This document shows, in pieces, positions 1,985 to 55,717 of a stretch of DNA of 56,871 nucleotides (position 1 is the first letter of the stretch; each line of letters starts with the position of its first letter). A program made the position numbers and the translations under genes. The notes below the pieces were generated by a model. That model saw nothing but the letters and a program-made list of their open reading frames with translations, had not been told where the DNA came from and ran no database searches. Origin of the DNA: Porticoccaceae bacterium (GTDB lineage: Bacteria; Pseudomonadota; Gammaproteobacteria; Pseudomonadales; Porticoccaceae); assembly GCA_036275455.1 (NCBI GenBank), contig DASUDS010000015.1:1-56871 (forward strand), in the 5' to 3' direction.

Positions 1985-2092
1985 GCCTTCAGTCCGTCGC
2001 CTTCAGCCCGCCGCGATCAGTCCGCCACCATCAGTCCGCCACCTTCACACCTTCAGCCCGGCACCCGCCGCGATCAGTCCGCCACCGTCAGT
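1985..2092. repeat. degenerate tandem array (13-14 nt units, about 7-8 copies) containing the stop of the RND permease gene
   Basis: On the minus strand: cacTGAcggtggcgg / acTGAtcgcggcgggtgccggg / cTGAaggtg / TGAaggtggcgg / acTGAtggtggcgg / acTGAtcgcggcggg / cTGAaggcgacgg / acTGAaggcgg. The first copy is the real gene end (stop at 2088-2090). Confidence 0.75.
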
Positions 2093-5000
2093 GCACTGCG
2101 AACCAGTGCGGGTGGCGGGTCGCCAGCTGGTAATAGAGCGCGGGCAGCACCAGCAGGGTCAGGATCGTCGAGACGCTGGTGCCGAAGATGAGCGAGGTGG
2201 CCATCCCGGCGAACATCGGGTCGGTGTACATGATCAGCGTGCCCACGACCACGGTCGCGGCGGTGAGTACGATGGGCCGGAAGCGCACCGCGCCGGCCAG
2301 GCGCACGGCCTCTTCGAGCGGTTTGCCCTCGCGCTGATAGTCGCGGATGAAGTCGATGATCAGCAGCGAATTGCGGATCACCACCCCGGCCAGCGCCACG
2401 GTGCCGATCGCCGAGGCCATGCTGAAGGGAATGCCCACCAGCCAGTGGCCGGGAAAGACGCCGGCGAGCCCGAGGGGAATCGAAGTCATGGCCACCAGCG
2501 GGATGACGAAGGAGCGATAGGTGCCCACCAGCAGCAGGAAGATGAACAGCACCGCAACGCCCAGCACCACGGCCATTTCGCCCCAGGCATCCAGTGTCAG
2601 GCGCAGTTCGCCGTCCCACAGCAGCTTGTAGCCGTCGAGCGTCGAGGGCAGCACCGGCAACAGCGTGAGGTTGTCGGTATGCAGCACGTTGCCGTTGCCG
2701 AGGTCCAGGCCGTCGAGATCCTTATCCATGGCGAGGATGGCGTACACCGGCGCCGAGTCGGTGATTTCCGCGCCCACGTAGGTTACCCGCTCGTTGTCCT
2801 TGCGCAGGATGGGGCGATCGTGGCGGGTCTCCACCACGCGGGTCAGCTCCGAGAGCGGCACGCGGTCGCCGCGATCGTTGTCGACATGGATGCGATCCAG
2901 CAATGCCGGGTCGATGGCCAGCGCGCGCGGCACCTTGATGAGGATGGGCACCGGCGTCTTTTCGCCGGCGATATGGGCTTCGGACACCACGCGTCCGTCC
3001 ATCAGGCTTTGCAGGGTCTGCTCGATGGCGTGGGTGGTGACGCCGGAGAGCACGGCCTTTTCCTTGTCCACCTGGATGTCGAAACGGGGGATATCGGCGG
3101 ACTCGGTATCGTAGATATCGACCACCATGTAGCCCTGCTTGAAACGCTCCCGTACCTTGGCCGCGGCCTGGCGGAGTACCTCGGGGTCGGGGCCGTAGAT
3201 CTCGGCCAGTATCCGGGCGCGGGTCGGCGGCCCGGGCGGCGCCTCCACGAAGCGGACATCGAGGCCGGGGAACCGCTGCTTGATGGCTTCGGTTGCAGTG
3301 CGCAGCTCGGCGATCACGACCATCGACTTGGTCTTGCGGAGCTTCTTGTCGACCAGGTTGATGCTGATCTCGGCGACGTGCGGGCCGCGGCGATTGCTGT
3401 TGCCGCGGATCTGGCCGGCGAAATCGATCACCGCGGGGATGCCCACATAGGTCAGGTAATTGGCGACCAGCGGGTGCTCGCCGATCACCGCGCCGAACTC
3501 GCGCGCCACCCGGTCGGTGACTTCCACCGGGGTGTTTTCCGGCATGTCCAGGGTGATGTTGAAGGTGTTCTTGTCGTCCTTGGGCATGATCGCCAGCATC
3601 ACCCCGCCTGCGGACAGGGGGCCGTCCACGCCGGCGGGGCGGAGGAACTGCCAGGCCGGTTGCAGGAAGGACGCCAGGATCATCAGCACCGTCAGCGCAA
3701 ACAGGCCGTGGCGCAGGCGGGGGCGCTTCAGCAGGGGCGTGAGGATTCGCGCATAGGCCCGGTAGATCGGCGTGGCGTCGGGCGCCTCGACGACCGGCAC
3801 CACCCGGCCGTGCAGCCAGCGATGGCAGGTCCAGGGCACCACGATGTAGGCCACCAGCAGCGACAGCGCCATGGTCACCGGCACGTTGAAGGTGATCGGG
3901 TAGAAGAATTCGCCGTTCATGCCCGACACGATGCCGAGCGACGAAAACACCAGCACCACGGCGATGGTGGCCATGGTGGTGGGCGGGCCGATCTCGTTGG
4001 TGGCCTGCACCACCAGGGTGCGCGGATCGACACCAGGTGGCGGCTGCTGGTAATTGCGATAGATGTTTTCCAGGGTGACGATGCCGTCGTCGACGATCAT
4101 GCCCAGCGCCAGAATCAGCGCGAACAGCGACATCCGGTTGATGGTGGGGCCGATCAGCATGTCGATGGCCAAGGTCAGGCACAGGATCAGCGGCAGCTCG
4201 AAGGCGATGATCAGTCCGGCGCGCAGGCCGAGAAAGGGCAGCAGCACCAGGATCACGGCGCTGATGGCGATGCCCAGTTCGCCGATCACCTTGTTGACGG
4301 TATCGTCGGCGATCACGCCATCGTTGCGGGTGGTGACCACGCGCACTGCGGCCGGGATGAACTGTTCCTGCATCTGGCGGACCCTGGCGAGCACGTCGTC
4401 GGCCACGAATACCGCGTTCTTGTTGGTCTTTTTCGCCACCGAAAGGGTGACGGCGGGCATTTCGCCGAGCGCCCTGGCGTGCTCCGGGTCTCCGGCGCCA
4501 TAGCTGAACCGGGTGAGACTGGCGCGCTCCCGGGCGGGGCCGTCGAACACCTCGGCGACGTCGTCGACATAGATCAGCTGGCCGTCGTGGGCGCCCAGGG
4601 CCAGGCGTCGCACCGCCTCGACCGAGGTCAGTTCGCCGCGCAGATTGACCAGCAGATTGTTACCGCCGCGCACCGTGTTGCCGACCACCGCCGCCACGTT
4701 GCTCGCCTCGAGCATGGCAATGCCCTGGTTCATCGTCAGGCCGAAGGCCTCCAGCCGCGCGGGGTCGAGCTCGATGCGCAGCTCGCGGCTGCGGCCACCG
4801 TGGAGCTCGGTGACCGATACCTCTTCGATGGTGCTCAGGCGCTCCTTCATGCGCTCGGCCAGGCGCCGCAACGCGTAGTCGTCGTAGGTCTCGGAAGTGA
4901 GCGTGACGTTGACGATGGGCACGTCGTCGACGTCGACGCGGCGCACCAGCGGCAGCCCGGTGTCCGGCGGCAGCAGGTGCTGATGGCTCATCACGCGCTG

Positions 5001-5357
5001 GTAGACGCGCACCATGGCATCGTCCTTGTCCACGCCGACGTCGAATTGCACGCTGATCTGGCCGAGGCCGTGGGCGGCGACGGCGTAGGTGTGATCGACC
5101 TCCTCGATCTCGCGCAGCACGCCCTCCATGGGCGCGACCACGAGCTGCTCCACATCGGCCGCCGCGCGGCCCGGGATGCGGTAGGTGATCTCGGCGCCGG
5201 GCACCACGATCTGCGGGTTTTCCTCCCGCGGCGTCAGCACGGCGGCGATGGCGCCCACCACCAGGCAGAAGACGATGAATACCGGGGTGAGTTTGGAATC
5301 GACGAAGTAGTCGGTCAGCCGCCCGGCGGAATTGAGCCCCTGCCTGGACATCACCAC
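2088..5357 (-). CDS. efflux RND transporter permease subunit (AcrB/HAE family)
   Basis: The 1089-aa ORF has a typical RND N-terminus (FVDSKLTPVFIVFCLVVGAIAAVLTPREENPQIVVP), two large periplasmic loops and 12 TM-type segments. It sits directly downstream of an adaptor gene. Confidence 0.93.
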   Translation of the reverse strand: MVMSRQGLNSAGRLTDYFVDSKLTPVFIVFCLVVGAIAAVLTPREENPQIVVPGAEITYRIPGRAAADVEQLVVAPMEGVLREIEEVDHTYAVAAHGLGQISVQFDVGVDKDDAMVRVYQRVMSHQHLLPPDTGLPLVRRVDVDDVPIVNVTLTSETYDDYALRRLAERMKERLSTIEEVSVTELHGGRSRELRIELDPARLEAFGLTMNQGIAMLEASNVAAVVGNTVRGGNNLLVNLRGELTSVEAVRRLALGAHDGQLIYVDDVAEVFDGPARERASLTRFSYGAGDPEHARALGEMPAVTLSVAKKTNKNAVFVADDVLARVRQMQEQFIPAAVRVVTTRNDGVIADDTVNKVIGELGIAISAVILVLLPFLGLRAGLIIAFELPLILCLTLAIDMLIGPTINRMSLFALILALGMIVDDGIVTLENIYRNYQQPPPGVDPRTLVVQATNEIGPPTTMATIAVVLVFSSLGIVSGMNGEFFYPITFNVPVTMALSLLVAYIVVPWTCHRWLHGRVVPVVEAPDATPIYRAYARILTPLLKRPRLRHGLFALTVLMILASFLQPAWQFLRPAGVDGPLSAGGVMLAIMPKDDKNTFNITLDMPENTPVEVTDRVAREFGAVIGEHPLVANYLTYVGIPAVIDFAGQIRGNSNRRGPHVAEISINLVDKKLRKTKSMVVIAELRTATEAIKQRFPGLDVRFVEAPPGPPTRARILAEIYGPDPEVLRQAAAKVRERFKQGYMVVDIYDTESADIPRFDIQVDKEKAVLSGVTTHAIEQTLQSLMDGRVVSEAHIAGEKTPVPILIKVPRALAIDPALLDRIHVDNDRGDRVPLSELTRVVETRHDRPILRKDNERVTYVGAEITDSAPVYAILAMDKDLDGLDLGNGNVLHTDNLTLLPVLPSTLDGYKLLWDGELRLTLDAWGEMAVVLGVAVLFIFLLLVGTYRSFVIPLVAMTSIPLGLAGVFPGHWLVGIPFSMASAIGTVALAGVVIRNSLLIIDFIRDYQREGKPLEEAVRLAGAVRFRPIVLTAATVVVGTLIMYTDPMFAGMATSLIFGTSVSTILTLLVLPALYYQLATRHPHWFAVH

Positions 5358-5396
5358 CTCGCCGCGGGTTGCCGCGCGATCACGGGGCGCATTACC

Positions 5397-6485
5397 TCAG
5401 CGGCTCCCGGTCGGAGCAGCGAGCAGATCGCCGTCCTTCACCGTGGCAGTGACCTGCGCCAGCAGGGTTTCGCCGGCGTCGAGACCGGCGGTGATCTCGG
5501 TCCGCTCCCGATGCTCGGCACCGGTGCGCACCCAGCGAAAGCGCAGCACGCCAGCTTCGCCCACGACGAACACACCGGTCAGCCCGCCGCGCTCGGCGAG
5601 CGCCGCCGGAGGTATCAGAATCCCGGCGCGCGTACCCACGGTGAAGACGCTGCGACCGAACATGCCGGGCACCAGGCCCTGGGGGTCGGCGAGGCTGATC
5701 TTGACCAGATAGCGCCGGGTGACCGGGTTGCCGGACGACACCAGCCGCACCACCTCGCCGCCGTAGTCGGTACCGGTGGCGTCGATCTGCACGGTCACCG
5801 GATCGCCCAGCCGCACGTGGCCGAGCTGGCTTTCGGCGATGAAGGTCTCAAAGAGCAGAGCGGTGTCCGATTCCACGGTGACGATGGGTGCCCCGGGGGT
5901 TACCAGATCGCCGCTGCGCGCCGGGCGGGCCACCACCACGCCGGCCACCGGGCTCAGGATTTCGGTGTAGCGCAGCTCGGCGCGCGCCGCACTCAGGGCG
6001 GCCCGCGTCGCGTCCAGCTCCTTGGTGGCCACTTCGTGGGCCAGCCTGGCCTTGCGCAGTGCCGCCGCCGACACCACGCCCTTGGCGAACAGTTCCTCGG
6101 CATCCTGGAGATCCTTGCCGGCATCGAGCTGGGCCGCGGCCGCGCGGTCACGGTTCGCTTCCGCCTGGCGGATGGCGCCGCTGACGTCCTGACTGTCGAG
6201 GGTGGCGATGCGCTGGCCGCGTGCCACCCGTTCGCCCTCGCGGACTTCCAGGCTGCGCAGATAGGCAGCGATGCGCGAGCTGATCTCCACGCGCTCGTCC
6301 GAGACCACGGTGCCGGTGGTGGTGTAGTGGATCGGCAGGCTCTGGCTGGCGGCGACCAGCGTGGGCAGCGGGTGACTGGCGACGGGCGGCTGTGACGCCG
6401 GTGCCGGGTCGCGCCCGCAACCGGCCAGCGCTGCCAGCAGCAGGCCCGCGACGCTAGTCCGGGCGAGGATGGATGAGCGGATCAA
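5397..6485 (-). CDS. efflux RND transporter periplasmic adaptor (MFP/HlyD family) lipoprotein
   Basis: 362 aa with a lipobox in MIRSSILARTSVAGLLLAALAGCG. It has coiled-coil and beta-barrel adaptor-like sequence and lies upstream of the RND permease. No outer-membrane factor gene is present in the window. Confidence 0.88.
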   Translation of the reverse strand: MIRSSILARTSVAGLLLAALAGCGRDPAPASQPPVASHPLPTLVAASQSLPIHYTTTGTVVSDERVEISSRIAAYLRSLEVREGERVARGQRIATLDSQDVSGAIRQAEANRDRAAAAQLDAGKDLQDAEELFAKGVVSAAALRKARLAHEVATKELDATRAALSAARAELRYTEILSPVAGVVVARPARSGDLVTPGAPIVTVESDTALLFETFIAESQLGHVRLGDPVTVQIDATGTDYGGEVVRLVSSGNPVTRRYLVKISLADPQGLVPGMFGRSVFTVGTRAGILIPPAALAERGGLTGVFVVGEAGVLRFRWVRTGAEHRERTEITAGLDAGETLLAQVTATVKDGDLLAAPTGSR

Positions 6486-6569
6486 ACGCGAGTCCCTCGG
6501 GTCATGCCGTGCGCCGGGCGGCGAGTATAGAAGACCGCGATGGGTCGGGAAAAACCCGTCAAGGTCTTC

Positions 6570-6623
6570 CGGCAGAAAGCTGCCGCAGAAACCTGTCGCA
6601 GAAAGCTGTCGCAGAAAGCCCTG
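6570..6623. repeat. 13-14 nt x4 tandem repeat downstream of the LLM gene
   Basis: ggcagaaagctgcc / gcagaaacctgtc / gcagaaagctgtc / gcagaaagccctg. Confidence 0.7.
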
Positions 6624-6630
6624 ACGACGA

Positions 6631-7758
6631 TCAAGTGCCGAAATTCGGCAGCACCCGCCGCGCGAACAGATCGACGCTGTGCAGCAGCTTCTGCGGTTCC
6701 AGAATGCCCTGCGGAATCAGCAGAAAGACTTCGTCCAGCGGGATCTTGCCGGCGACTTCGGCGATGCGGCGGTTGAGGGTATCCGGGCTGCCGACCAGCA
6801 GTTCCGGGAAACCCTGGCCGAAGGGCATCATCCACTGCTCCCAGAGCCAGGCCATCTCGCCGTACCACTCGCGCGCCTGGGCATCGGTCTCCGCGCACAC
6901 CATGATGCCGCCCCAGCAGGCCTGGTCGCCGGGGCGATGGGCGACGCCGTGGCGGTCGGCCTCTGCGCTCCACTCCTGCCACAGCAGCTGCAGGAAGTCG
7001 AGGTCGCTGGCGAGCACGATCGGGCGGCCCTTGTGCCGTGCCCAGAACTTGGCCGAGCGCAGGCTGTGGGAGAAGCCGCCGTAGAGCGGGATTTCCGCCT
7101 GCAGCGGCCGCGGCGCGATGCCGATGCGCTCGATCGCCATGTCCGCGGTCACCCCCTGACCATAGCGGTGATATACCGGGTGCGGGTGGGGGTTGTGAAA
7201 GCCCGGCACCGGGAACTGCCAATAGTTGCCGGCATGGCTGAAGGTGTCTTCGCGCAGCGCCTTCAGCACCACCTCGACGAACTCGGCGAAGTATTCGCGA
7301 TTGGCTTCGTCGGCTGCGCTGCCCTTGTTCCAGGGGCCCACCGCGGTCAGTTCCGGGCGGATCTTGAAGTGCTCCACCCAGCGCGCCTGGTAGCCGCGCA
7401 CCAGCCCGACCCCCAGCCGTCCGCCCAGCATGCAGTCGAGGGTGGCGATCTTCTCGGCGGTGACCAGCGGGTTGTTGGTGGTGGACACGAAGCCGCAGGG
7501 GATGATGCGCAGGCGCTCGCTGTGCCGGCCCAGCCACATCGCCATCAGGCCGGGGTCGTTGGCGGCCTCGAAACCCTCGATCTGCAAATGGTGCTCGGGA
7601 TGGCCGAAGCCGAAGTAGCCGGCGCCGTCGGCAAGGCGTGCGAGTTCGGCGATCTCGTCGAGCATGCGCCGGTAGCGCCGGGCATCCTTGCCCGCCATCC
7701 CGGCTTCGAGTTCGGCGCGGCGGCCGACGGTGCCGTAGATGAACAGATTGAATTGCAT
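6631..7758 (-). CDS. LLM-class (luciferase-like) flavin-dependent oxidoreductase
   Basis: 375 aa. MQFNLFIYG...FGFGHPEHHLQIEGFEAANDPGLMAMWLG...LGVGLVRGY resembles bacterial luciferase-like monooxygenases. It is the last gene of a minus-strand trio with a flavin reductase. Confidence 0.8.
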   Translation of the reverse strand: MQFNLFIYGTVGRRAELEAGMAGKDARRYRRMLDEIAELARLADGAGYFGFGHPEHHLQIEGFEAANDPGLMAMWLGRHSERLRIIPCGFVSTTNNPLVTAEKIATLDCMLGGRLGVGLVRGYQARWVEHFKIRPELTAVGPWNKGSAADEANREYFAEFVEVVLKALREDTFSHAGNYWQFPVPGFHNPHPHPVYHRYGQGVTADMAIERIGIAPRPLQAEIPLYGGFSHSLRSAKFWARHKGRPIVLASDLDFLQLLWQEWSAEADRHGVAHRPGDQACWGGIMVCAETDAQAREWYGEMAWLWEQWMMPFGQGFPELLVGSPDTLNRRIAEVAGKIPLDEVFLLIPQGILEPQKLLHSVDLFARRVLPNFGT

Positions 7759-7824
7759 CGCGCTCGCCTCGTTGGGGTGGTTATGGTGGCGAGGAGGAGG
7801 GTGGCGATCGACCTTGCGCGCTGG

Positions 7825-7851
7825 CGTCGACTTCAGGCGTTGACGTCGACT

Positions 7852-7870
<19 letters not shown>
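7825..7870. repeat. 19-nt tandem duplication of the 3' end (with stop) of the acuI-like gene
   Basis: cgtcgacttcaggcgttga occurs at 7825-7843 and again at 7844-7862, followed by cgtccacc. The real stop tca is at 7852-7854 and the copy is at 7833-7835. Confidence 0.85.
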
Positions 7871-8850
<980 letters not shown>

Positions 8851-8873
8851 GGCATGGTCTCCGGCGGCCAGCG

Positions 8874-9350
8874 TCAGACGACGATCTTGGCGTACTTGCC
8901 CTTGTAGAACCCGAGCGGTTCGCGGTCCTTGGCGTCCATCTCGTGCACGCGGCCGACGATGATGATGTGGTCGCCGCCCTCGTGAAGGTGTTCGGTGGTG
9001 CACTCGAAGCGCACGCTGTAATCCTCGAGCAGCGGCGCACCGCCGGCATTCTCGTGCCACGCGAGGCTGGCGAACTTGTCGGCTTCCTTGGTGGCGAACA
9101 GGCGGCTGATGTTTTCCTGGCCGGAATGCAGGATATGGATGGCAAAGTGCCTGGCCTGCATGAAGGCGTCGAAACAGTTGGCGGTCTTGGCCACGCTCCA
9201 CAGCACCAGCGGGGGGTCCAGCGATACCGAGGAGAAGCTGTTGGCGGTGGCGCCCACCGGCTTGCCGTCGGCGTCCTTGGCGGTGACCACGGTGACGCCG
9301 GTGGCAAAGGCGCCCAGGGCATCCCGGAATTGGCGTTGGTCCAGACTCAT
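8874..9350 (-). CDS. flavin reductase family protein (NAD(P)H-flavin oxidoreductase component)
   Basis: MSLDQRQFRDALGAFATGVTVVTAKDADGKPVGATANSFSSVSLDPPLVLWSV... is the HpaC/flavin reductase-like domain. A GAGGA Shine-Dalgarno lies 7 nt upstream of the ATG at 9350. Confidence 0.88.
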   Translation of the reverse strand: MSLDQRQFRDALGAFATGVTVVTAKDADGKPVGATANSFSSVSLDPPLVLWSVAKTANCFDAFMQARHFAIHILHSGQENISRLFATKEADKFASLAWHENAGGAPLLEDYSVRFECTTEHLHEGGDHIIIVGRVHEMDAKDREPLGFYKGKYAKIVV

Positions 9351-9563
9351 TGCACATGTCCTCATGTAGGCGGGAATGGAAGGAAAATAATCGGGGTGAG
9401 ACAACGTCGGCGCGCGGCGCTTGTCTCCGGGTCGGCGCAGCAATCCGCTGCCGCCCGGATTGAGTAGTGGCCGGGGCGCGCCGGTCGCTGCGGCGCGCCC
9501 GTCAGCGCGATCAGCGGGGCCAGCTCGATCAGCGACGCAATGTAGCACAGCGCCAGTAGGCGA

Positions 9564-10199
9564 TCAGCCGTTGGCCTGCACTGCGGGCCGCGCGGCGATG
9601 CGCTGGTACCAGGCCCGGAGATGTACGCAGTCGGCGGGAATTTCGGCCTTGATCCACTTGGCGAAGTCGCAGGTGACCAGGGTGGTGATGTCGGCCATTG
9701 AGTAGAAATCGCCGGCGACGTATTCGTGATCCTGGAGCTGCTGGTCGAAGTCGGTGAAGAAATTGGCCACCCGGGCGCGGCCGCGCTCCGCCAGTTCCGC
9801 CGACTGCGGATAGGCGTGGGGGCCGACCACGGCACGGTTGGCGAAGCCCTTGGCGGTGTTGCGGAACACCTCGGCCACCGCCAGCAGACCGTTCATGAAC
9901 GCCAGGTGCTCCCACATCTCGCACAGCGCTTTTTGCTTGGGGGTGCTGCCCAGCAACGGCGTGGCGGGATGGATTTCCTCGAAGTAGCGGCAGATGGCGC
10001 GGATCTGGCTGATGCAGGTGCCGTCGTCCAGTTCGAGCATGGGAATGTCGCAGGCGGGATTCTTGGCGCGGTACTCGGGAGCGAGTTGTTCGCCTTTCAT
10101 CAGATCGACCGGCACCCGCGCCACGCTGATGCCTTTTTCGGCCAGAAAGATATTGACGCGGCGGGGGTTGGGCGCCTGCGGATAGTCGTAGAGTTTCAT
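9564..10199 (-). CDS. glutathione S-transferase
   Basis: 211 aa. MKLYDYPQAPNPRRVNIFLAEKGI...EYRAKNPACDIPMLELDDG is the GST N-terminal thioredoxin-like fold, followed by a helical C-terminal domain. Confidence 0.88.
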   Translation of the reverse strand: MKLYDYPQAPNPRRVNIFLAEKGISVARVPVDLMKGEQLAPEYRAKNPACDIPMLELDDGTCISQIRAICRYFEEIHPATPLLGSTPKQKALCEMWEHLAFMNGLLAVAEVFRNTAKGFANRAVVGPHAYPQSAELAERGRARVANFFTDFDQQLQDHEYVAGDFYSMADITTLVTCDFAKWIKAEIPADCVHLRAWYQRIAARPAVQANG

Positions 10200-10215
10200 C
10201 TGGGCTTATCCTCTT

Positions 10216-10300
10216 GGTGATGATTGCTGAAAATGTATAGTTACTGGAAATGATGGTTGCCGGAAATGATGATCACTGGAAATGATGGCTGCTGGAGATC
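10216..10300. repeat. 16-nt x5 degenerate tandem array in the GST 5' leader
   Basis: On the minus strand: cagcagccatcatttc / cagtgatcatcatttc / cggcaaccatcatttc / cagtaactatacatttt / cagcaatcatcaccaagagga-ATG. This is locally the lowest-GC stretch. Confidence 0.75.
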
Positions 10301-10419: not shown

Positions 10420-11712
10420 ATGGCGGAGGCTCCCTTGCCAGCTGACGTTCCTTTGCCAGCTGAACCTCCCTTGCCAGCTGAAGCTCCCGTGCCAACTGAA
10501 GCTCCCCTGCCCCTCGCGGAAGCCCGTTCGCGGATGCGCGACCGGGTGACCGCGGTGGAGGAAACCGAGCTGGTCCCGCTCGGCCAGCTCGCCGAGCGGA
10601 TTCTGGCCGCGCCGCTGCGTGCCGATGTCGATCTGCCGGCCGCCGACTGCTCGGCCATGGACGGCTATGCGCTGCGCCATGCCGATCTGCTGCCGGGTGC
10701 GCGGTTGCGGCTGATCGGCACCGCGCTGGCGGGCGCCCCCTTCGCGGATCGGGTCGATGCCGGCCAGTGCGTGCGCATCACCACGGGGGCGCAGCTACCG
10801 GCCGGTACCGATACCGTGGTGATTCAGGAGGACGTGGCGCGCGAGGGCGATGCCATCGCACTGACCGCGCAGGCGCCCCAACCTGGGGCCAATGTCCGCC
10901 GCACCGGAGAGGATATCGCCCGCGGCGAGCTGCTGCTGCCCGCCGGGCGGCGGCTGGGTGCGATCGAGATCGGCGTTCTGGCCACCCTGGGTCGGGCGCA
11001 GGCTCGGGTGCGGCGCCGGGTCCGGGTGGCCCTGCTGGCCAGCGGTGACGAACTGCGCCCGCCGGGTTCCCTGCTCGAACCGGGACAGATTCACGACAGC
11101 AACCGCTATGTGCTGGCGGCGATGCTGGCGCGGCTGGGGGTGGACGTGCGCGATTTCGGCATCGTTCCCGATCGCCCGGAAGCACTGCGCGCGGCGTTTC
11201 GCGCTGCCGCCGCGGAGGCCGATCTGGTACTCAGCTGCGGCGGTGCGTCGGTGGGCGAGGCCGATTTCACCCTGGAGATCTTGCGCGAGCTGGGCGAGGT
11301 GGCGTTCTGGAAGGTCGCCATAAAACCCGGCAAGCCGTTCATCTTTGGCCGCCTCGGCAATGCCCTGCTGTGCGGTCTGCCCGGCAATCCGGTATCGGCA
11401 TTGGTGACTTTTCACCAGCTCGCGGTCCCGGTGATTCGCGGCCTGCAGGGTGCGGAAGATCCCGAGCCGCTGCGGCTGGTCGCCCGCACCACGGTGCCGT
11501 TGCGGCCCAATCGCTCGCGGCTCGAACTGTTGCGCGGGCATCTGCAGCGCGATGTCGCCGGGGATCTGCGGGTTACCCCGGACCGGCAGCAGAGTTCGGC
11601 GGCGTTTGCGGCGCTGGCGCGTTGCAATGCCTTCATCGAGGTGCCGATGGGCACCGCAGAGATCGCCGCCGGAGCCGCGGTATCGGTGCTGCCGTTCGAC
11701 GCATTGTTGTGA
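10420..11712 (+). CDS. moeA: molybdopterin molybdotransferase MoeA
   Basis: ...LAAPLRADVDLPAADCSAMDGYALRHADL...ITTGAQLPAGTDTVVIQED...GGASVGEADF...KPGKPFIFG are canonical MoeA motifs. The start is ATG at 10420 (the ORF track uses TTG at 10411). The N-terminus is repeat-encoded. Confidence 0.9.
   Translation: MAEAPLPADVPLPAEPPLPAEAPVPTEAPLPLAEARSRMRDRVTAVEETELVPLGQLAERILAAPLRADVDLPAADCSAMDGYALRHADLLPGARLRLIGTALAGAPFADRVDAGQCVRITTGAQLPAGTDTVVIQEDVAREGDAIALTAQAPQPGANVRRTGEDIARGELLLPAGRRLGAIEIGVLATLGRAQARVRRRVRVALLASGDELRPPGSLLEPGQIHDSNRYVLAAMLARLGVDVRDFGIVPDRPEALRAAFRAAAAEADLVLSCGGASVGEADFTLEILRELGEVAFWKVAIKPGKPFIFGRLGNALLCGLPGNPVSALVTFHQLAVPVIRGLQGAEDPEPLRLVARTTVPLRPNRSRLELLRGHLQRDVAGDLRVTPDRQQSSAAFAALARCNAFIEVPMGTAEIAAGAAVSVLPFDALL
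10426..10515 (+). repeat. 18-nt x5 in-frame tandem repeat encoding the MoeA N-terminal (P-L-P-A-E-A)n tail
   Basis: gaggctcccttgccagct / gacgttcctttgccagct / gaacctcccttgccagct / gaagctcccgtgccaact / gaagctcccctgcccctc. Confidence 0.85.
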
Positions 11713-11930
11713 CTTTCGGTTCGCAGGCGATTTTCGGTTCGCAGGCGATTTTCGATTCGCTGGTGACTTGCGATCCGTTTACGATTTCCGCTTCGCTTGC
11801 GACTTCCGGTTCGATGGTAACTTTCGATTCGCTTGCAACTTTCGGTCGGCCGGTGACCGTCGATCCGCTGGTGACTGTCGATCGCTCGTGACCGTCGATC
11901 AGTTTGTGATGGGCGAATGGTTTGTGACCG
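11711..11930. repeat. 12-13 copies of an 18-nt degenerate tandem repeat starting at the moeA stop codon
   Basis: The units start gactttcggttcgcaggc / gattttcggttcgcaggc / gattttcgattcgctggt / gacttgcgatccgtttac and run to gaccgtcgatcagtttgt / gatgggcgaatggtttgt. The 18-nt phase is kept throughout except for one 17-nt unit. Confidence 0.9.
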
Positions 11931-13207: not shown

Positions 13208-13214
13208 CGAACGC

Positions 13215-15854: not shown

Positions 15855-16310
15855 ATGGCAGAACTGCTGACCCCCGAAATCAAGGCCCGGATCGGCACCG
15901 CCAGTCCCGAGATCCGCGTCGAAGTCACCCGGCGCGACATCCAGAAATACGCCGTCTCCACCGGCCAGCGCGCGCGCAAGTATCTGGATGGCGACGAAGC
16001 GCCGCCGCTGTTCCACTTCGGCTATTCGATGGAAATCCTGCCGCCCGAGCAGCTGCGCAAGGACGGCATCGCCGAAGACAAGCTGATCCCGCCGCTGCCG
16101 CTGAAGCGCGTCATGGCCGGCAACTCCGACACCACCTATCACCGGCCGATCCGCCCCGGCGACAAGCTGGTCATCACCCGGCGGCTCAAGGACATCTACG
16201 AGAAGGCCGGCAAGAGCGGCCCGTTGATCTTCGTGGTCACCGAGACCGAAGTGAAGACCGAGGCCGGAGAACCGGTGCTCAACGAAATCACCTCGCTCAT
16301 TGCGAGATAG
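15855..16310 (+). CDS. hotdog-fold (MaoC/FAS1-like dehydratase N-terminal type) protein, subunit 1 of a pair
   Basis: The internal ATG at 15855 is preceded by AAGGAG. MAELLTPEIKARIGTASPEIRVEVTRRDIQKYAVSTGQ...PLFHF is typical of the non-catalytic partner of two-gene hotdog hydratases. Confidence 0.75.
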   Translation: MAELLTPEIKARIGTASPEIRVEVTRRDIQKYAVSTGQRARKYLDGDEAPPLFHFGYSMEILPPEQLRKDGIAEDKLIPPLPLKRVMAGNSDTTYHRPIRPGDKLVITRRLKDIYEKAGKSGPLIFVVTETEVKTEAGEPVLNEITSLIAR

Positions 16311-16427
16311 CGTTAGCGGATTGCGAAATAGCTTGAGCGGATACGAGATAGCAGCCTGATTGAGAGATGGCCATCTGATTGCGAGATGGCCGTCGGATGG
16401 TAGATAGCCACCTGATTGCGAGATGAC
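16297..16427. repeat. 7 copies of an 18-22 nt unit spanning the stop of hotdog gene 1 and the start of hotdog gene 2
   Basis: tcattgcgagatagcgttagcg / gattgcgaaatagcttgagcg / gatacgagatagcagcct / gattgagagatggccatct / gattgcgagatggccgtcg / gatggtagatagccacct / gattgcgagATGAcc. Confidence 0.9.
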
Positions 16428-16839
16428 CATGCCCAAATTCGAAGACATCCAGCCCGGCGATGCGCTGCCCAGCCGCGACCACACCGCCGGCATCGTCCAA
16501 CTGTTCATGTACAACGCGGCGATCTGGAACCCGCACCGGATCCATTTCGACCACGCCTATGCCACCCAGGAAGAGGGCTATCCGGGCATCGTGCTCGACG
16601 GCCCGTTGCAGGGCGACTGGATCGGCCAGGTGGTCGCCGACTGGATCGGTGATGACGCCACGCTGGTTTCCTTCGGCTACGCCAACCGCCAGGCCGCCTT
16701 CCTCGGCGAGACCATGAGCGCGGGCGGCGTGGTGGAGTCGAAGGATGACGCCTCGCGCGAGGTCAAGGTCAGCCTGTTCCTGAAAAACGCCCAGGGTGAG
16801 ATCACCATTCCGGGGCATGCCCTGGTGCGGTTTCGTTGA
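16423..16839 (+). CDS. MaoC-like hotdog-fold dehydratase, subunit 2 of a pair
   Basis: 138 aa. ...FMYNAAIWNPHRIHFDHAYATQEEGYPGIVLDGPLQ... is a variant hydratase-2-like NPxxIHxD segment followed by a hotdog core. Confidence 0.75.
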   Translation: MTMPKFEDIQPGDALPSRDHTAGIVQLFMYNAAIWNPHRIHFDHAYATQEEGYPGIVLDGPLQGDWIGQVVADWIGDDATLVSFGYANRQAAFLGETMSAGGVVESKDDASREVKVSLFLKNAQGEITIPGHALVRFR

Positions 16840-22862: not shown

Positions 22863-22937
22863 AAGGCGGCGAAAATGCGGTTCGGTCCCAGGGTCCGCTG
22901 GCCCTGACCGGGGGCAGGCATGACTTGCATGTCTGCC

Positions 22938-22985
22938 GTGTGGGCAAGGCCTTGTGCGCGCAAGGCCGTGTGTGAGCAAGGCCGT
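22938..22985. repeat. 16-nt x3 tandem repeat in the rimO/DUF1820 spacer
   Basis: gtgtgggcaaggcctt / gtgcgcgcaaggccgt / gtgtgagcaaggccgt. Confidence 0.7.
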
Positions 22986-23092
22986 GCGCCAGTGCCTATT
23001 GGCCGACCGGCTGTCGCCGGCAAGCGGTTGAAATTCCGGGCCCAGACCCCATTGTGCTAAGCTGCCGCCAGTAACCCCGAAGGCCGCCGGGC

Positions 23093-27246: not shown

Positions 27247-27316
27247 GCGATGGTGCGGCAATCTACCGGGTGCGGCAATCCACCGGATGCGGCAATCCAC
27301 TGGATGCTGCAAAGGG
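27247..27316. repeat. 17-nt x4 tandem repeat in the divergent MaoC/proA spacer
   Basis: cgcgatggtgcggcaatcta / ccgggtgcggcaatcca / ccggatgcggcaatcca / ctggatgctgcaaaggg. Confidence 0.8.
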
Positions 27317-30177: not shown

Positions 30178-30290
30178 AGGGTGGCAAACGCCGATCAAGT
30201 GCGACAGTCGCAGATGAAAATTGCCCGAAAATCGCCGATGCAGATCGACAGTCACCGATGAAATCCGACCACCGATGAACGCCGACCGTC
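30166..30290. repeat. about 6 copies (19-24 nt) of the rlmH-stop/mrdA-start junction
   Basis: ccaccgcTGAagggtggcaaa / cgccgatcaagtgcgacagt / cgcagATGAaaattgcccgaaaat / cgccgATGcagatcgacagt / caccgATGAaatccgacca / ccgATGAacgccgaccgt. Confidence 0.85.
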
Positions 30291-37398: not shown

Positions 37399-38446
37399 CG
37401 CGCTGCCGGTACGCCGCACCCGCCGCCTGCTGGCTGGCGAGAAGCTGCGCGACGCGGCCAAGGTCGAGCGCATTCCGGTCAAGGTGATCGCCAGCGACGC
37501 GGTGCCGCGCAAGCCGCCCTGGATCCGGGTGCGCGCGGGCGTGGGTGGCGAGGTGCTGCGCATCAAGCGCATTCTCCGCGCGCACGGGCTGGCCACGGTG
37601 TGCGAGGAAGCGTCCTGTCCCAATCTGGGCGAATGCTTTGGTGGTGGCACCGCGACCTTCATGATCCTGGGGGAGATCTGCACCCGCCGTTGCCCGTTCT
37701 GCGATGTCGGCCACGGCAAGCCCAACCCGCCCGATGGCGATGAACCCGAGCGCCTGGCCGCCTGCATCGCCGAGCTGGGGCTGGGCTATGTGGTGATTAC
37801 CTCGGTGGATCGCGACGATCTGCGCGACGGCGGTGCCGCCCATTTCGCGGCCTGCATCGCCGCGGTGCGCGCGCGCGCCCCGGGGATCGTCATCGAGGTG
37901 CTGACCCCGGACTTTCGCGGCCGCATGGAGGGCGCGCTGGATATCCTCGGCCACCAGCCGCCCGACGTGTTCAACCACAATCTGGAAACGGTGCCGGCGC
38001 TGTATCGCGAGGTGCGACCGGGCGCCAACTACGCCTGGTCGCTGCGCCTGCTGGCGGAGTTCGGCCGCCGCAACCCCCAGGTACCCACCAAGTCCGGTCT
38101 GATGGTGGGGCTTGGCGAGACCCGCGAACAGCTGCTCGCGACCCTAGACGACCTGCGCGCCCATGATGTTGCCATGGTCACCATCGGCCAGTATCTGCAG
38201 CCTTCGCGGGCGCACCTGCCGGTGCAGCGCTACGTCCATCCGGACGAATTTGCGGAGTACCGCGACTACGGTTACCGCATCGGCTTTCGCCATGTGGCGT
38301 CGGGGCCGTTGGTGCGGTCGTCCTACCATGCCGACCAACAGGCGCGCGGCGAGGGCCTGGTGCGCAGCGCGGGCATTGGCCGCAACGAGGACATCGCCTG
38401 CAACGAGGACATTGGCTGCAACGAGGAGCCCATTCATGGCCACTGA
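37385..38446 (+). CDS. lipA: lipoyl synthase LipA (with repeat-encoded C-terminal tail)
   Basis: [11 protein letters not shown]...[38 protein letters not shown]...[10 protein letters not shown]...[10 protein letters not shown] is canonical LipA. The extra tail is [33 protein letters not shown]. Confidence 0.92.
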
Positions 38447-38518
38447 TTCTCACACCAAAAGCGATTCCCACACCAAAAGCGATTCCCGCACCGAAATCGC
38501 TGCCCGTACCGAAATCGA
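38375..38518 (+). repeat. two adjacent 18-nt in-frame tandem arrays across the lipA stop and the DUF1244 start
   Basis: First array: attggccgcaacgaggac / atcgcctgcaacgaggac / attggctgcaacgaggag / cccattcatggccacTGA. Second array: ttctcacaccaaaagcga / ttcccacaccaaaagcga / ttcccgcaccgaaatcgc / tgcccgtaccgaaatcga. Confidence 0.9.
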
Positions 38519-45756: not shown

Positions 45757-46426
45757 GGTGCTGGCTCCGCGCGGTGAGGGAGACGCGTGCGGTGAGAAAG
45801 TTGGATGCGGTGAGAAAGTTGGATGCGGTGACAAGGGCGCGTTCGGTGGCGATGCCGTCGAGCGGTACGTCCCAGGGCGCGGCCGCGAGCTGGGGCACCT
45901 GCTGGAAGGCGTGGGCCAGCCCGATCAGCCGTGGGTGGCGGCGCCCGCGGCGGCGAAATGCCAGCGCACGATCGTAGAATCCGGCGCCCTGGCCAAGGCG
46001 ATTGCCGGCGGCATCGAAGGCGACCAGGGGCACCAGGATCAGATCCAGGCTCCAGGTCGGCACCGGGCGGCGCAGCAGGGGTTCGGCAATGCCGAAGTGG
46101 TTGCGCACCAGCGGTTCGCCTTCGCGCCAGGCGACGAAATGCAGGCGGTTGTGCCCGAGAGGATGCAGCACCGGGAGAAAGCAGCGTTTGCCGAGTCGTT
46201 CGGCGCGGCGGCGCAAAGGTGCCGGATCGATTTCGCCGCCATGGGCGAGATAGAAGCCGATGCGGCGCGCGCGGCGAAAGGCCGGCAGCGCGGCCACCAC
46301 GGTGTCCAGCGCGGCGCTGGCCGCGGCCTGCTGGCTCGGGCTGAGGGCGCGGCGCCTGGCGCGCAGCGCGCGGCGCAACTGGCCTGCATCTGTGGTTTGA
46401 CGTGGTGGCGTGCCGGAACCGGTCAT
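45749..46426 (-). CDS. ygfA: 5-formyltetrahydrofolate cyclo-ligase (with repeat-encoded C-terminal tail)
   Basis: ...RIGFYLAHGGEIDPAPL...CFLPVL...FGIAEP...LDLILVPLVAFDAAGNRLGQGAGFYDR...DVPLDGIATE... are 5-FCL motifs. Its position downstream of ssrS is as in E. coli. The tail ...VTASNFLTASNFLTARVSLTARSQHHA overlaps the pyk ATG by 8 nt. Confidence 0.88.
   Translation of the reverse strand: MTGSGTPPRQTTDAGQLRRALRARRRALSPSQQAAASAALDTVVAALPAFRRARRIGFYLAHGGEIDPAPLRRRAERLGKRCFLPVLHPLGHNRLHFVAWREGEPLVRNHFGIAEPLLRRPVPTWSLDLILVPLVAFDAAGNRLGQGAGFYDRALAFRRRGRRHPRLIGLAHAFQQVPQLAAAPWDVPLDGIATERALVTASNFLTASNFLTARVSLTARSQHHA
45770..45841. repeat. 18-nt x4 tandem repeat at the 5-FCL 3' end / pyk 5' leader
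   Basis: gcgcggtgagggagacgcg / tgcggtgagaaagttgga / tgcggtgagaaagttgga / tgcggtgacaagggcgcg. The two central copies are identical. Confidence 0.88.
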
Positions 46427-46487
46427 GCTCGGTGTCGGATGTGCCGGCGCACGGTCCGGTTGGGGATGGTGGCGCGCCGGTGTAATT

Positions 46488-46660
46488 GGACCCCGGAGAT
46501 GCCGCTGTCGAGGTGACCTTGAACCGAAAGTTCAAGGCGGGATTCCCGGTTGGGCTTCAGGCTTTCCGTCATGCGGACATGCTCAACGGCCCGGAATGAG
46601 AACCCCATGACAGAGATATCGGCTAAGGACGTGATCGACTGGCGAACACCCCAGGGCGAG
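46488..46660 (-). ncRNA. ssrS: 6S RNA
   Basis: The minus strand reads ...CCCUGGGGUGUUCGCCAGUCGAUCACGUCCUUAGCCGAUAUCUCUGUCAUGG...GAGCAUGUCCGCAUGACGGAAAGCCUGAAGCC...CGCCUUGAACUUUCGGUUCAAGGUCACCUCGACAGCGGCAUCUCCGGGG. It aligns segment by segment with the E. coli 6S RNA I remember (GAGCAUGCUCGG..., CACCUUGAACCAAGGGUUCAAGG, GCGGCAUCUCGGAG). It sits between zapA and the 5-FCL gene, as in E. coli. The ends are approximate, within about 5 nt. Confidence 0.8.
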
Positions 46661-46663
46661 CCC

Positions 46664-47013: not shown

Positions 47014-47019
47014 CGGCGT

Positions 47020-47881: not shown

Positions 47882-47923
47882 TTCGCCCCACCGCACCCCG
47901 TCATCCTGAACTACGGAACGCCG

Positions 47924-49234: not shown

Positions 49235-49238
49235 CCGG

Positions 49239-51648: not shown

Positions 51649-51799
51649 CCCGGCAGCCGTAACCGAGGTTACCGCGCGGTTTACCCTCTCCAGTGCATCC
51701 TCTATAGTGTTTTTCCTGAGGTGCAGCGTTTTTCCTTGCGTTTTTCCCGCCTTGCATCGCGTGCAGGGTGCGGATATCCAATAAGCAGGTGACATCATC

Positions 51800-52981: not shown

Positions 52982-52992
52982 CGGGGCGAACC

Positions 52993-54120: not shown

Positions 54121-54151
54121 TCCCCATCTTCCCAGCCACGAGGATATCTGC

Positions 54152-54616
54152 ATGACCCTGCGCATCGACCCCACCAATCTGGCCGCCTGCATCGGCCAGG
54201 ACGCTGGCACCTCCGACTGGTTCGCCATCGATCAGTCGCGCGTCAACGACTTCGCCGACGTCACCCTGGATCACCAGTTCATCCACGTCGATCCCGAGCG
54301 CGCCAAACAGTCGCCCTTCGGCACCACCATCGCCCACGGTTTTCTGACACTGTCGATGCTCGCCTACTTCCTGCAAAACGGCGTCGGCATCGACGTGCCC
54401 AACCGCACCATGGGCGTCAACTACGGTTTCGACAAGGTGCGCTTCCTGGCCCCGGTCAAGGTCGGCCGCCGCATCCGCGCCAATGCCAAGGTGCTGGAGG
54501 CCGCGGAAAAGAGCCCCGGCCAGTTCCTGTTCAAGCTCGACATCACCGTGGAGATCGAAGGCGAGGACAAGCCGGCACTCAAGGCCGAGTGGCTCAACAT
54601 GATTTTCACCCGCTGA
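54152..54616 (+). CDS. MaoC-family (R)-specific enoyl-CoA hydratase-like dehydratase
   Basis: MTLRIDPTNLAACIGQDAGTSDWFAIDQSRVNDFADVTLDHQFIHVDPERAKQSPFGTTIAHGFL is a hotdog hydratase motif variant. Confidence 0.85.
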   Translation: MTLRIDPTNLAACIGQDAGTSDWFAIDQSRVNDFADVTLDHQFIHVDPERAKQSPFGTTIAHGFLTLSMLAYFLQNGVGIDVPNRTMGVNYGFDKVRFLAPVKVGRRIRANAKVLEAAEKSPGQFLFKLDITVEIEGEDKPALKAEWLNMIFTR

Positions 54617-54784
54617 CGGATCCGCACCCGCTGACGGATCCGCACCCGCTGACGGATCCCTGCCCGCTGAACGCGGCCTGCAACGCCCAAGAACCTGCAA
54701 TATCGAAGATATCCAGGAGCCTGCAATATCCAAGAGCCTGCAACGCTCCAGAACCTGTAACGCTCCAGAAAGAGGAACTCCAGC
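54607..54784. repeat. two consecutive tandem arrays filling the MaoC/SDR spacer: 18 nt x4 (stop-containing), then about 17 nt x5 (RBS-containing)
   Basis: First array: cacccgcTGAcggatccg x3, then tgcccgcTGAacgcggcc. Second array: tgcaacgcccaagaacc / tgcaatatcgaagatatccaggagcc / tgcaatatccaagagcc / tgcaacgctccagaacc / tgtaacgctccagaaagaggaactccagc-ATG. Confidence 0.9.
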
Positions 54785-55696
54785 ATGACTATTCGATTCG
54801 ACGGCCGCGTGGCCATCGTCACCGGCGCCGGCAACGGCCTGGGCCGCTCCCATGCGCTGGCCCTGGCGGCGCGCGGTGCCAAGGTGGTGGTCAATGACCT
54901 CGGCGGCGCCCGCGACGGCACCGGTGCTTCCAGCGAAGCGGCGCGCGCCGTGGTCGCGGAAATCAAGGCCGCTGGCGGCGAAGCCATCGCCAATGGCGCC
55001 AACGTGGCCGATTTCGCCCAGGTGCAGGCGATGGTCAAGGAGACGATGGACGCCTGGGGACGGGTGGACATCCTCATCAACAACGCCGGCATCCTGCGCG
55101 ACAAGTCCTTCTCCAAGATGGACATGGCCGACTTCAAGCTGGTGATGGACGTGCACCTGATGGGCGCGGCCTACTGCGCCAAGGCAGTGTGGGAGATCAT
55201 GAAGGAGCAGAACTACGGCCGCATCGTGATGACCTCGTCGTCGAGTGGCCTGTACGGCAATTTCGGCCAGTCGAACTACAGCGCTGCCAAGCTCGCCGTG
55301 GTCGGCCTGATGAACAGCCTCGCCCAGGAAGGCGAAAAGTACAATGTGCGGGTCAATTCGCTGGCGCCCGCGGCGCTGACGCGGATGACCGAGGACATCA
55401 TTCCCGACCCGCGTGCCGCCGCGGTGATGCAGCCCGAGCCGGTCAGCGCCGGGGTGCTGGTGCTGTGCTCCGAAGACGCGCCCAACAAGTTCATTCTCTG
55501 TGCCGGTGCCGGTGGTTACGCCAGCGCCCACCTCTACGAGACCCGCGGTCTCTATCTGGCCGAACAGACCCCGGAAGCGGTGCAGGAGCACTGGGCGCAG
55601 ATCGACGATCCCAAGGGCGAGGAGCGGCTTTCCGGAGCCCTCAAGCAGACCGAGAAATTCATCGGCTACGCGCTCGCCGCGCAGAAATCATCCTGA
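54785..55696 (+). CDS. SDR-family oxidoreductase (MFE-2-type 3-hydroxyacyl-CoA dehydrogenase-like)
   Basis: MTIRFDGRVAIVTGAGNGLGRSHALALAARGAKVVVNDLGG...NNAGILRDKSF...SSSSGLYGNFGQSNYSAAKLA resembles the N-terminal dehydrogenase domain of multifunctional enzyme type 2. Confidence 0.88.
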   Translation: MTIRFDGRVAIVTGAGNGLGRSHALALAARGAKVVVNDLGGARDGTGASSEAARAVVAEIKAAGGEAIANGANVADFAQVQAMVKETMDAWGRVDILINNAGILRDKSFSKMDMADFKLVMDVHLMGAAYCAKAVWEIMKEQNYGRIVMTSSSSGLYGNFGQSNYSAAKLAVVGLMNSLAQEGEKYNVRVNSLAPAALTRMTEDIIPDPRAAAVMQPEPVSAGVLVLCSEDAPNKFILCAGAGGYASAHLYETRGLYLAEQTPEAVQEHWAQIDDPKGEERLSGALKQTEKFIGYALAAQKSS

Positions 55697-55717
55697 TTCC
55701 ACTCATCCTGATTCCAC
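55688..55717. repeat. 15-nt x2 perfect tandem duplication of the SDR gene 3' end including TGA
   Basis: tcatccTGAttccac occurs at 55688-55702 and again at 55703-55717. The stops at 55694 and 55709 are in frame. Confidence 0.88.

Follow-up and report, generated by a model that had tools for sequence, protein, structure and literature searches.

Short tandem arrays at the gene boundaries of a Porticoccaceae genome segment as probable products of lineage-specific tandem duplication

What could fill the junctions between ordinary housekeeping genes with short tandem repeats, each built from a different sequence? The question is raised by 56,871 nt of DNA from a Porticoccaceae bacterium (contig DASUDS010000015.1 of GenBank assembly GCA_036275455.1), the whole of which is called the window here. 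An earlier examination of its letters and open reading frames (the sequence-only reading) had noticed at least 15 head-to-tail arrays, almost all at gene ends, and had ascribed them to a high rate of short tandem duplication filtered by selection. We conclude, with a probability of about 0.8, that these arrays are locus-specific variable-number tandem repeats (VNTRs) of the minisatellite type, generated by unusually active, lineage-specific short tandem duplication. The window has a GC content of 67%, its nearest proteins come from uncultured Porticoccaceae/Pseudomonadales metagenome-assembled genomes (MAGs), and its Pfam and NCBIfam annotation is that of an ordinary housekeeping region.

Arrays were counted with Tandem Repeats Finder (TRF; score ≥50, period 10–60, overlapping arrays merged), and the counts were set against 50 dinucleotide shuffles of the window and 160 control loci of other genomes (2.0 Mb). 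TRF recovers all 15 arrays described earlier, with periods of 13–24 nt, 2–10 copies and 69%–100% matches; the one placed at 30166–30290 is weaker in TRF and draws its support from alignment to a relative, L189. After merging, the window holds 21 arrays, whereas the shuffles average 0.84 and never exceed three. This corresponds to 3.7 arrays per 10 kb, 4.6-fold higher than the 0.80 seen for the control loci. TRF copy numbers across the 21 range from 1.9 to 10.3, and the periods from 13 to 24 nt, plus one higher-order period of 54 nt. In the provisional gene map 11% of the window is non-coding, and most of the arrays (17/21) lie there or reach into it; once start codons are corrected, the split is 14 non-coding and seven coding. 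It had been claimed that nearly every spacer longer than 40 nt is affected, which overstates the case, as ~12 of ~30 such spacers (~40%) hold an array. By junction type, arrays are found at 0/6 convergent, 2/7 divergent and 12/43 co-directional junctions, numbers too small to tell the types apart. The copies are contiguous, with no unique spacers between them, so these are not CRISPR arrays. That real gene ends lie inside arrays is borne out by TRF and translation: a stop codon in seven (1983, 7825, 11709, 16299, 25638, 54607 and 55688, arrays being named by their first position), a start codon in two (16356 and 30253), and four in-frame terminal coding arrays (10429, 38363, 38445 and 45788).

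The units bear no more relation to one another than chance would provide. When every rotation and either strand of a unit is allowed, the best identities between loci average 0.572, compared to 0.558 for shuffled units; what the units do align to is the single-copy sequence that relatives have at each locus. The sequence-only reading was thus right that the units are unrelated and form no REP or MITE family. Of 17 arrays folded as RNA, 15 do no better than shuffled sequence (z-scores from −2 to +1.1) and only 22935 and 27254 come near −3, and neither unit comparison nor folding found a consensus or terminal structure shared across the arrays.

Comparison with other genomes indicates where the arrays came from. 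Five relatives keep the window's gene order (our contigs L001, L175, L176, L189 and L203) at 81%–86% nucleotide identity for the four other than L203, for which the figure is that of MoeA, 76% identical at the protein level; L164 is the closest relative, at 88%–92% nucleotide identity. A scan of genome contigs gave L001 as the best match (80%), and one of metagenome contigs with MoeA gave nothing closer than 69%; nearer sequences were reached only through protein-database and contig look-ups. Alignment of the spacers, which the sequence-only reading had proposed as a check, finds the arrays lacking or lower in copy number in all six. L189 and the window have 17 kb in common; of the 21 junctions there, 17 differ in length by no more than a few nucleotides, and the four that do differ are exactly the array sites. 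Length differences of at least 20 nt are strongly one-sided, with ~15 longer in the window and one longer in a sister, and over aligned regions TRF (score ≥50) finds ~18 arrays in the window and ~2 in the sisters. Sister species of equal GC carry 0–1.4 arrays per 10 kb, and L203 has none of the arrays at the RND, monooxygenase and acuI stops. At affected junctions the sisters have spacers of 10–40 nt or overlaps. The suggestion that the arrays now separate ancestrally overlapping genes is overstated on this comparison: spacers predominate in the sisters, and an ATGA overlap is a plausible ancestor at the FAS1_DH/Htd2 junction alone. Judged from these alignments, most of the arrays are young and lineage-specific, with two older ones (the FAS1_DH/Htd2 junction and 10218). 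L164 has a distinct 16-nt ×3.7 array of its own in the spacer upstream of moeA, so that the duplication process is at work in that lineage too.

The arrays also vary within the species. Protein look-ups in NCBI MAGs, ENA and Logan assemblies yielded ~40 same-species contigs with 98%–99.9% nucleotide identity to the window. Whole-unit differences in copy number were found at eight of 18 arrays, with up to 4–5 length alleles (1983, 6572, 7825, 10429, 16299, 45788, 54607 and 55688; the changes are given in Table 1), and nearly all same-species indels relative to the window are whole repeat units. The arrays with the most-alike copies tend to be the polymorphic ones, and degenerate arrays are invariant (11709, 22935, 25638, 27254, 30179, 38363, 38445 and 54709). 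Whole-unit expansion and contraction, the classical behavior of slipped-strand mispairing, is thus shown directly.

A filter imposed by selection is shown statistically. All seven coding arrays have a period divisible by three (18, 18, 18, 18, 15, 21 and 24 nt), compared to five of the 14 non-coding arrays (hypergeometric p = 0.007), which supports the earlier suggestion of frequent duplication filtered by selection. It had also been stated that every array entering coding sequence has an 18-nt period; the coding arrays do keep frame, but 18 nt is not exclusive to them, as 11709 and 54607 are non-coding and weaker coding repeats have periods of 15, 21 and 24 nt. The coding arrays sit at protein tips, outside Pfam domains, where the four strong ones encode low-complexity repeats: APLPAE-like ×5 at the MoeA N-terminus, IGRNED ×3 at the LipA C-terminus, DSHTKS/RTEI ×4 at the DUF1244 N-terminus and TASNFL at the C-terminus of 5-formyltetrahydrofolate (5-formyl-THF) cyclo-ligase. 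The repeat-encoded tails on conserved enzymes noticed earlier are therefore real, and NadD can be added to the list. The stretch at 38445–38518, previously taken as intergenic, proves to be an in-frame N-terminal extension of DUF1244, whose gene overlaps lipA by 11 nt. Seven non-coding arrays copy the last codons and stop of a gene and leave the protein unchanged; where their period is 15 or 18 nt, they form the strings of in-frame back-up stops that had been reported. Two arrays duplicate start regions, so that stops have been drawn into arrays more often than starts (7 vs 2).

These results are consistent with a process of three steps. In the first, a segment of 13–24 nt would be tandemly duplicated, probably when replication slips or switches template between short direct repeats (microhomologies). 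As soon as a second similar copy is present, slipped-strand mispairing adds and removes whole units, allowing growth to 2–12 copies and to higher-order blocks, until point mutations make the copies diverge and the arrays stable. Purifying selection then clears the events that damage genes. The survivors are of four kinds: duplications within spacers, duplications of last codons with their stop, duplications of start regions that yield short upstream open reading frames (uORFs), and duplications in multiples of three at tolerant protein tips. Because the genome is tightly packed, permissive sites are nearly all gene boundaries, and this would be why the arrays are located there. The arrays would need no function. 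For the first step, single-copy relatives offer candidate microhomologies one unit apart: TCGA at 19 nt (7825, in L203), GATGAAC at 20 nt (rlmH–mrdA, in L189, where it occurs at the rlmH stop and again at the mrdA start), and a TCATC pair 15 nt apart at the 55688 site in L175.

Several observations weigh against this account. Microhomology of at least 4 nt is present in only three of ~10 testable arrays, the rest having 3 nt or less, in outgroups that are ~15% diverged. Relative to the amount of ancestral non-coding DNA, arrays are commoner at short junctions within operons than in long spacers that hold promoters, and hence a pure selection filter is sufficient only if long spacers are more constrained. 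The copy-number calls rest on short-read metagenome assemblies. About 66 kb of the species' sequence was examined, and the 8–9 kb next to the window's right end are free of arrays, so that genome-wide density may be lower than in the window. Nor is the array level in the window, though high, unique. Two control loci reach a similar density: L008 from Porticoccaceae, and L077 from Burkholderiales, which at 74% GC has 8–9 arrays in 21 kb, mostly of the coding type.

L008 is a Porticoccaceae MAG contig (JAGPUQ010000007.1, 51% GC) with eight short arrays in 21 kb (5658–9868). They lie almost entirely in spacers near its GST–moeA neighborhood, and its MoeA is 59% identical to that of the window. 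The tendency to form arrays may recur patchily across the Porticoccaceae.

The strongest alternative, though still a tentative and somewhat unlikely one, holds that mutation itself is aimed at gene ends, with duplications arising preferentially at stop/start junctions. Ribosome release there could uncouple transcription from translation and stall replication forks, and motifs such as GATGA, ATGA and those resembling ribosome-binding sites could act as microhomology. The sites at which arrays later formed are mostly 10–40-nt junctions in the sisters, and ~11 of 13 spacers longer than 60 nt are free of arrays; the numbers are small, however, and the rates per junction (27% vs 15%) do not differ significantly. 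The GATGAAC shared by the rlmH stop and mrdA start, together with the GATTGCGAGAT common to the FAS1_DH stop and Htd2 start, would fit such targeting. So would the excess of stops over starts, except that a duplication including the stop is the most neutral event of all, and selection alone predicts the same bias. Arrays in mid-spacer and in divergent promoter regions (22935, 27254 and 10218) speak against it, as does the lack of any array at the six convergent junctions despite their stop codons (P about 0.14).

We consider it quite unlikely that the arrays were selected as tunable elements, in the manner of contingency loci, with copy number setting spacing, uORF chains, coupling or protein tails. 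Many of them do lie at junctions inside operons and vary within the population, the copy nearest the ribosome-binding site or start codon is intact in every case, and the ATGA overlaps retained in the rlmH–mrdA units preserve a chain of termination and reinitiation. However, unrelated units imply no common trans-acting factor, the affected housekeeping genes are unrelated, sister species work without the arrays, and the old arrays have decayed by point mutation (69%–85% matches). Arrays placed after a stop, with an in-frame stop in each copy, cannot alter the protein at all.

An assembly artefact or an ordinary high-GC background is highly improbable. Short reads can mis-assemble tandem repeats, and repeats do arise by chance in high-GC genomes, as the many arrays of L077 illustrate. 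Against an artefact, identical arrays and recurring alleles are found across independent NCBI, ENA and Logan assemblies made by different assemblers from different samples; the copies are no longer alike, and most of the arrays would fit within a single k-mer or read. Against background stand the low count in the dinucleotide shuffles and the array-poor sisters of equal GC. Finally, there is next to no chance that the arrays belong to one dispersed repeat or mobile family (REP/BIME, MITE or MIRU-like) or are transposon excision footprints, since their MIRU-like placement between co-directional genes, with stop and start codons included, is outweighed by units that resemble each other no better than shuffled ones, lack common inverted repeats, mostly fold ordinarily and each derive from the local gene end, while arrays of up to 10–12 copies do not fit excision. 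Structured RNA, terminator or REP identity was rejected for most arrays, as their folding is ordinary.

If locus-specific short tandem duplication is the source, its unusual activity calls for a cause. Array-poor L203 and the array-rich same-species contigs L165 and L194 all come from one ENA sample (ERZ27299535), and this co-occurrence suggests that environment alone fails to explain the difference in arrays. Loops of 13–24 nt escape MutS in E. coli genetics, which makes mutS and mutL poor candidates; single-strand exonucleases, flap processing by Pol I and replisome factors are more relevant ones. The ~66 kb examined include none of recJ, xonA/sbcB, xseAB, exoX, polA (5′-nuclease) or xni, dnaQ, holC/D, uvrD and rep, the genes whose loss or alteration relative to the sisters would mark a mutator genotype. 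It is conceivable, but unlikely, that a heritable change in replication or repair has made this lineage, and perhaps those of L008 and L164, a natural "minisatellite mutator" that forms 13–24-nt tandem duplications at gene junctions at well over the usual bacterial rate, with some polymorphic arrays (the uORF chain before mrdA, operon-internal spacers, variable enzyme tails) possibly serving as tunable expression elements. Candidate changes would be impaired flap processing, impaired single-strand exonuclease action or a defective replisome accessory factor.

Table 1. Tandem arrays and duplications of the window, with their state in relatives and in same-species contigs
Position	Strand	Feature	Basis and location	Relatives and same-species contigs
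1983..2091	-	14-nt array, ~7 copies	TRF; from RND permease stop (2088-2090) downstream towards ubiX	Spacer 40 nt in L203 vs 164 nt in window; same-species L193 57 nt shorter
6572..6619	-	13-nt ×3.7 array	TRF; 12 nt downstream of luciferase-like monooxygenase stop (gene 6631-7758)	None in L203; same-species L193 +26 nt (2 extra units)
7825..7866	-	19-nt ×2.2 perfect duplication	TRF; includes acuI stop (gene 7852-8850)	One copy in L203; alleles +19 nt (L193, L194), +38 nt (L195, L196)
10218..10296	.	16-nt ×4.9 array	TRF; divergent GST/moeA spacer, begins beside GST ribosome-binding site	None in L001; 2 homologous 16-nt-period copies in L164; invariant in same-species contigs
10429..10511	+	18-nt ×4.6 in-frame array	TRF, translation; MoeA N-terminus MAEAPLPADVPLPAEPPLPAEAPVPTEAPLPL; start ATG 10420	Single copy in L164, L001; same-species L161-L163 shorter by 36 nt (2 units)
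11709..11930	+	18-nt array, 10-12 copies, 54-nt higher-order period	TRF; begins at moeA stop (11710-11712)	moeA 3' spacer 224 nt in window vs 14 nt in L001, 38 nt in L164; between called genes 337 nt vs 122 nt in L203; identical across same-species contigs
16299..16430	+	19-21-nt array, ~7 copies	TRF; FAS1_DH stop (TAG, 16308-16310) to next start (ATG 16423)	Copies: L203 2, L001 3, window 7; same-species alleles +21, +42, +63 nt
22935..22986	+	16-nt ×3.4 array, palindromic unit	TRF; mid-spacer, MiaB-like gene/DUF1820; RNA fold z-score -3.1	Invariant in L179, L181
25638..25686	-	15-nt ×3.3 array	TRF, translation; final 4 codons of MAPEG (QLLF) + stop	One copy in L189; MAPEG stop/abhydrolase start spacer 10 nt in L189 vs 55 nt in window
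27254..27312	.	17-nt ×3.5 array	TRF; divergent FAS1_DH/proA spacer; RNA fold z-score -3.3	4 copies in window vs 2 in L189
29288..29335	+	Diverged ~24-nt ×2 in-frame duplication	NadD C-terminus; missed by TRF	24-nt insertion vs L189, resembling adjacent 24 nt; 230 aa in window vs 222 aa in L189
30179..30290	+	Degenerate 17-24-nt copies of mrdA start region	rlmH/mrdA; TRF only 30253-30287 (17 nt ×2.1)	81-nt insertion vs L189, diverged mrdA-start copies throughout; spacer 97 nt vs 16 nt
38363..38427	+	18-nt ×3.6 in-frame array	TRF, translation; LipA C-terminal tail	LipA 353 aa in window, 328 aa in L189
38445..38518	+	18-nt ×~4 in-frame array	TRF; DUF1244 N-terminal extension, ATG 38436 overlapping lipA stop	DUF1244 116 aa in window vs 98 aa in L189; unit homologous to L189 codons TRTEIE
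45770..45841	-	18-nt ×~4 in-frame array	TRF, Pfam; 5-formyl-THF cyclo-ligase C-terminal tail (TASNFL repeats)	57-nt insertion vs L176 (protein 186 aa); same-species L165 one 18-nt unit more than window
54607..54678	+	18-nt array, ~4-5 copies (TRF 3.6)	MaoC dehydratase last codons + stop (TGA 54614-54616); in-frame TGA in every copy	Single copy in L175, L176; TRF copies across 11 same-species sequences 3.6, 2.6, ~1.6 (last inferred from 36-nt gap)
54679..54784	+	17-nt array, ~5 copies	TRF 54709-54770; directly upstream of SDR ribosome-binding site/start (ATG 54785)	None in L175, L176; invariant among same-species contigs; MaoC-SDR spacer 132-168 nt in this species (window 168) vs 37 nt in L175, 29 nt in L176
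55688..55717	+	Perfect 15-nt ×2 duplication	TRF; includes SDR stop (55694-55696)	Single copy in same-species L174 and in L175, L176; SDR-thiolase spacer 39 nt in window vs 24 nt in relatives

Some of the sites listed in Table 1 deserve further comment. The ATGA-chained mini-uORFs that the sequence-only reading placed upstream of mrdA (PBP2) are real by translation: uORF1 (30214–30261) and uORF2 (30258–30278) encode MKIARKSPMQIDSHR and MKSDHR, and ATGA stop/start overlaps link both to the mrdA ATG at 30275. These uORFs exist because repeat units created them; given a 17-nt period and an ATGA motif, the TGA of the next copy falls in frame automatically. In the array 3′ of moeA, the 54-nt (3 × 18) period outscores the 18-nt period over 11709–11886, suggesting growth through the duplication of multi-unit blocks. 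The arrays at 22935–22986 and 27254–27312 are distant from stops and have units that contain inverted repeats, and they may overlap a terminator or operator.

The period itself was considered as a special length scale and rejected, since control genomes give an equal range at an equal TRF threshold. An 18-nt period is seen in 6/21 arrays of the window and 8/160 in the controls. Two of the six are non-coding, so that in-frame constraint alone fails to explain the excess.

The repeats caused starts to be mis-called at window 10420 (MoeA), 38436 (DUF1244) and 54785 (SDR). MoeA, of 430 aa, was called as 392 or 401 aa; DUF1244 as 86 aa instead of 116 aa; and the SDR as 295 aa instead of 303 aa. Frameshifts and indels outside repeats were also seen in same-species MAG contigs, namely in L167 (~4955–5409), in L197 (6663–7223) and as a 33-nt insertion in L199 (window 10719). 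These events of 5, 44 and 33 nt hit an acyl-CoA dehydrogenase gene and moeA, and could be assembly errors or true pseudogenization.

The gene order around the arrays begins with ubiX, an RND efflux pair, luciferase-like monooxygenases, acuI, a flavin reductase, GST and moeA, and continues with an amidohydrolase, MaoC-type dehydratase pairs, ptsP and rppH. There follow proA–nadD–rsfS–rlmH–mrdA–rodA–mltB–rlpA–dacA–ybeD–lipB–lipA–DUF1244; then a Lon-like protease, rpiA, ilvA, pyk, the 5-formyl-THF cyclo-ligase gene, 6S RNA, zapA/zapB and pepP; and finally ubiH-like genes, acyl-CoA dehydrogenases and a MaoC–SDR–thiolase group. The 6S RNA (SsrS, RF00013, 87 bits) lies at 46486–46660 on the minus strand between zapA and the cyclo-ligase gene, an arrangement conserved in gammaproteobacteria. 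It accounts for the 332-nt "spacer" there, which has no array. A search of the window's spacers for non-coding RNAs and tRNAs found the 6S RNA only, and no tRNA.

If the pattern holds genome-wide, the species would show, in nature and in a free-living bacterium, a mutational regime that generates minisatellites. Short tandem duplications here furnish additional spacers, uORFs and back-up stops and lengthen conserved enzymes at the N- or C-terminus (MoeA, LipA, NadD, 5-formyl-THF cyclo-ligase and DUF1244), and the stages are visible in one species, from perfect two-copy polymorphisms through to decayed 12-copy arrays. The arrays can be used as high-resolution strain markers. They also call for caution in gene calling, as with the MoeA, DUF1244 and SDR starts, and in short-read assembly, many contigs of the species being short. 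As it stands, this is a well-documented and quantitatively striking case of a familiar process. It would gain interest if array-rich and array-poor genomes revealed a genetic cause, and the presence of L203 in the same sample as array-rich contigs offers a clean comparison in which to search for one. In full-text literature searches we found no account of dense locus-specific arrays formed from stop/start regions in housekeeping operons, nor of tandem repeats in Porticoccaceae.

Among known systems, the closest are the bacterial VNTRs or minisatellites used in multilocus VNTR analysis (MLVA) of Yersinia pestis, Burkholderia pseudomallei and Pseudomonas. There, as here, locus-specific units of at least 10 nt are arranged head to tail, strains differ by whole units, perfect arrays are unstable and diverged ones stable, and slipped-strand mispairing is the accepted mechanism. 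The arrays of the window have every VNTR property that was tested: tandem units, whole-unit variation and locus-specific units. They differ in their density, ~3–4 per 10 kb over ~60 kb or several times the control baseline; in deriving mostly from a gene's own stop or start and striking housekeeping operon junctions and enzyme termini; and in being missing from sister species of ~85% nucleotide identity. The mycobacterial MIRUs resemble them in being tandem repeats between co-directional operon genes that overlap stops and starts, contain small ORFs and vary in copy number. However, MIRUs reportedly form one dispersed family with a consensus of 40–100 bp at about 40 loci, whereas the units of the window are 13–24 nt long, locally derived and unlike between loci. 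Taken together with the ordinary folding of most arrays, this lack of unit likeness indicates that they are not a REP, MITE or MIRU-type family.

Contingency loci are a poorer match, as the window's units are 13–24 nt long, its coding arrays are all in frame and the genes are housekeeping ones. In contigs of sister species, peptidase S8 genes do open with perfect CGCAATC heptamer repeats (×8.1–12.1) right after the ATG (L176 17402–17472 and 20803–20873; L177 11593–11649 and 14978–15062; L178 10522–10592), with copy number differing between contigs. These look like classical frameshift phase variation, unlike the 13–24-nt arrays of the window. Simple-sequence and dispersed short repeats, such as TAACTGA in Beggiatoaceae (PMC4679880) and G-rich heptamers in Xanthomonas/Nostoc (PMC4692102), are likewise non-coding tandem direct repeats of variable copy number. 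Their units, however, are 1–9 nt long and their motifs recur genome-wide, implying a common factor or function, in contrast to the unrelated units described here.

Two further systems bear on mechanism. Microhomology-mediated tandem duplications (MTDs) have been reported genome-wide in S. pombe, and in E. coli at ~1/20 of that frequency (PMC8639346). In an MTD, the short segment that is duplicated de novo is flanked by microhomologous sequence; such events are reversible by slippage and are selected against in essential coding sequence. Three arrays of the window have a matching pair in single-copy relatives, but most do not. MTDs are mostly subclonal, two-copy and from 10 to several hundred bp long, whereas the duplications of the window are fixed, many-copy and concentrated in one lineage. 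In freshwater Planctomycetota, a lineage-specific excess of intergenic tandem repeats was found with structural variants in long reads, for which the authors invoke polymerase slippage (PMC9426551). As in our data, one lineage stands out by non-coding indel polymorphisms at intergenic tandem repeats, though in another phylum, with large genomes and long spacers, and with no link to stops, starts or protein termini reported. Hence, the arrays of the window reflect a mutational process that is ordinary in kind but unusually active here, and they are no new genetic element.

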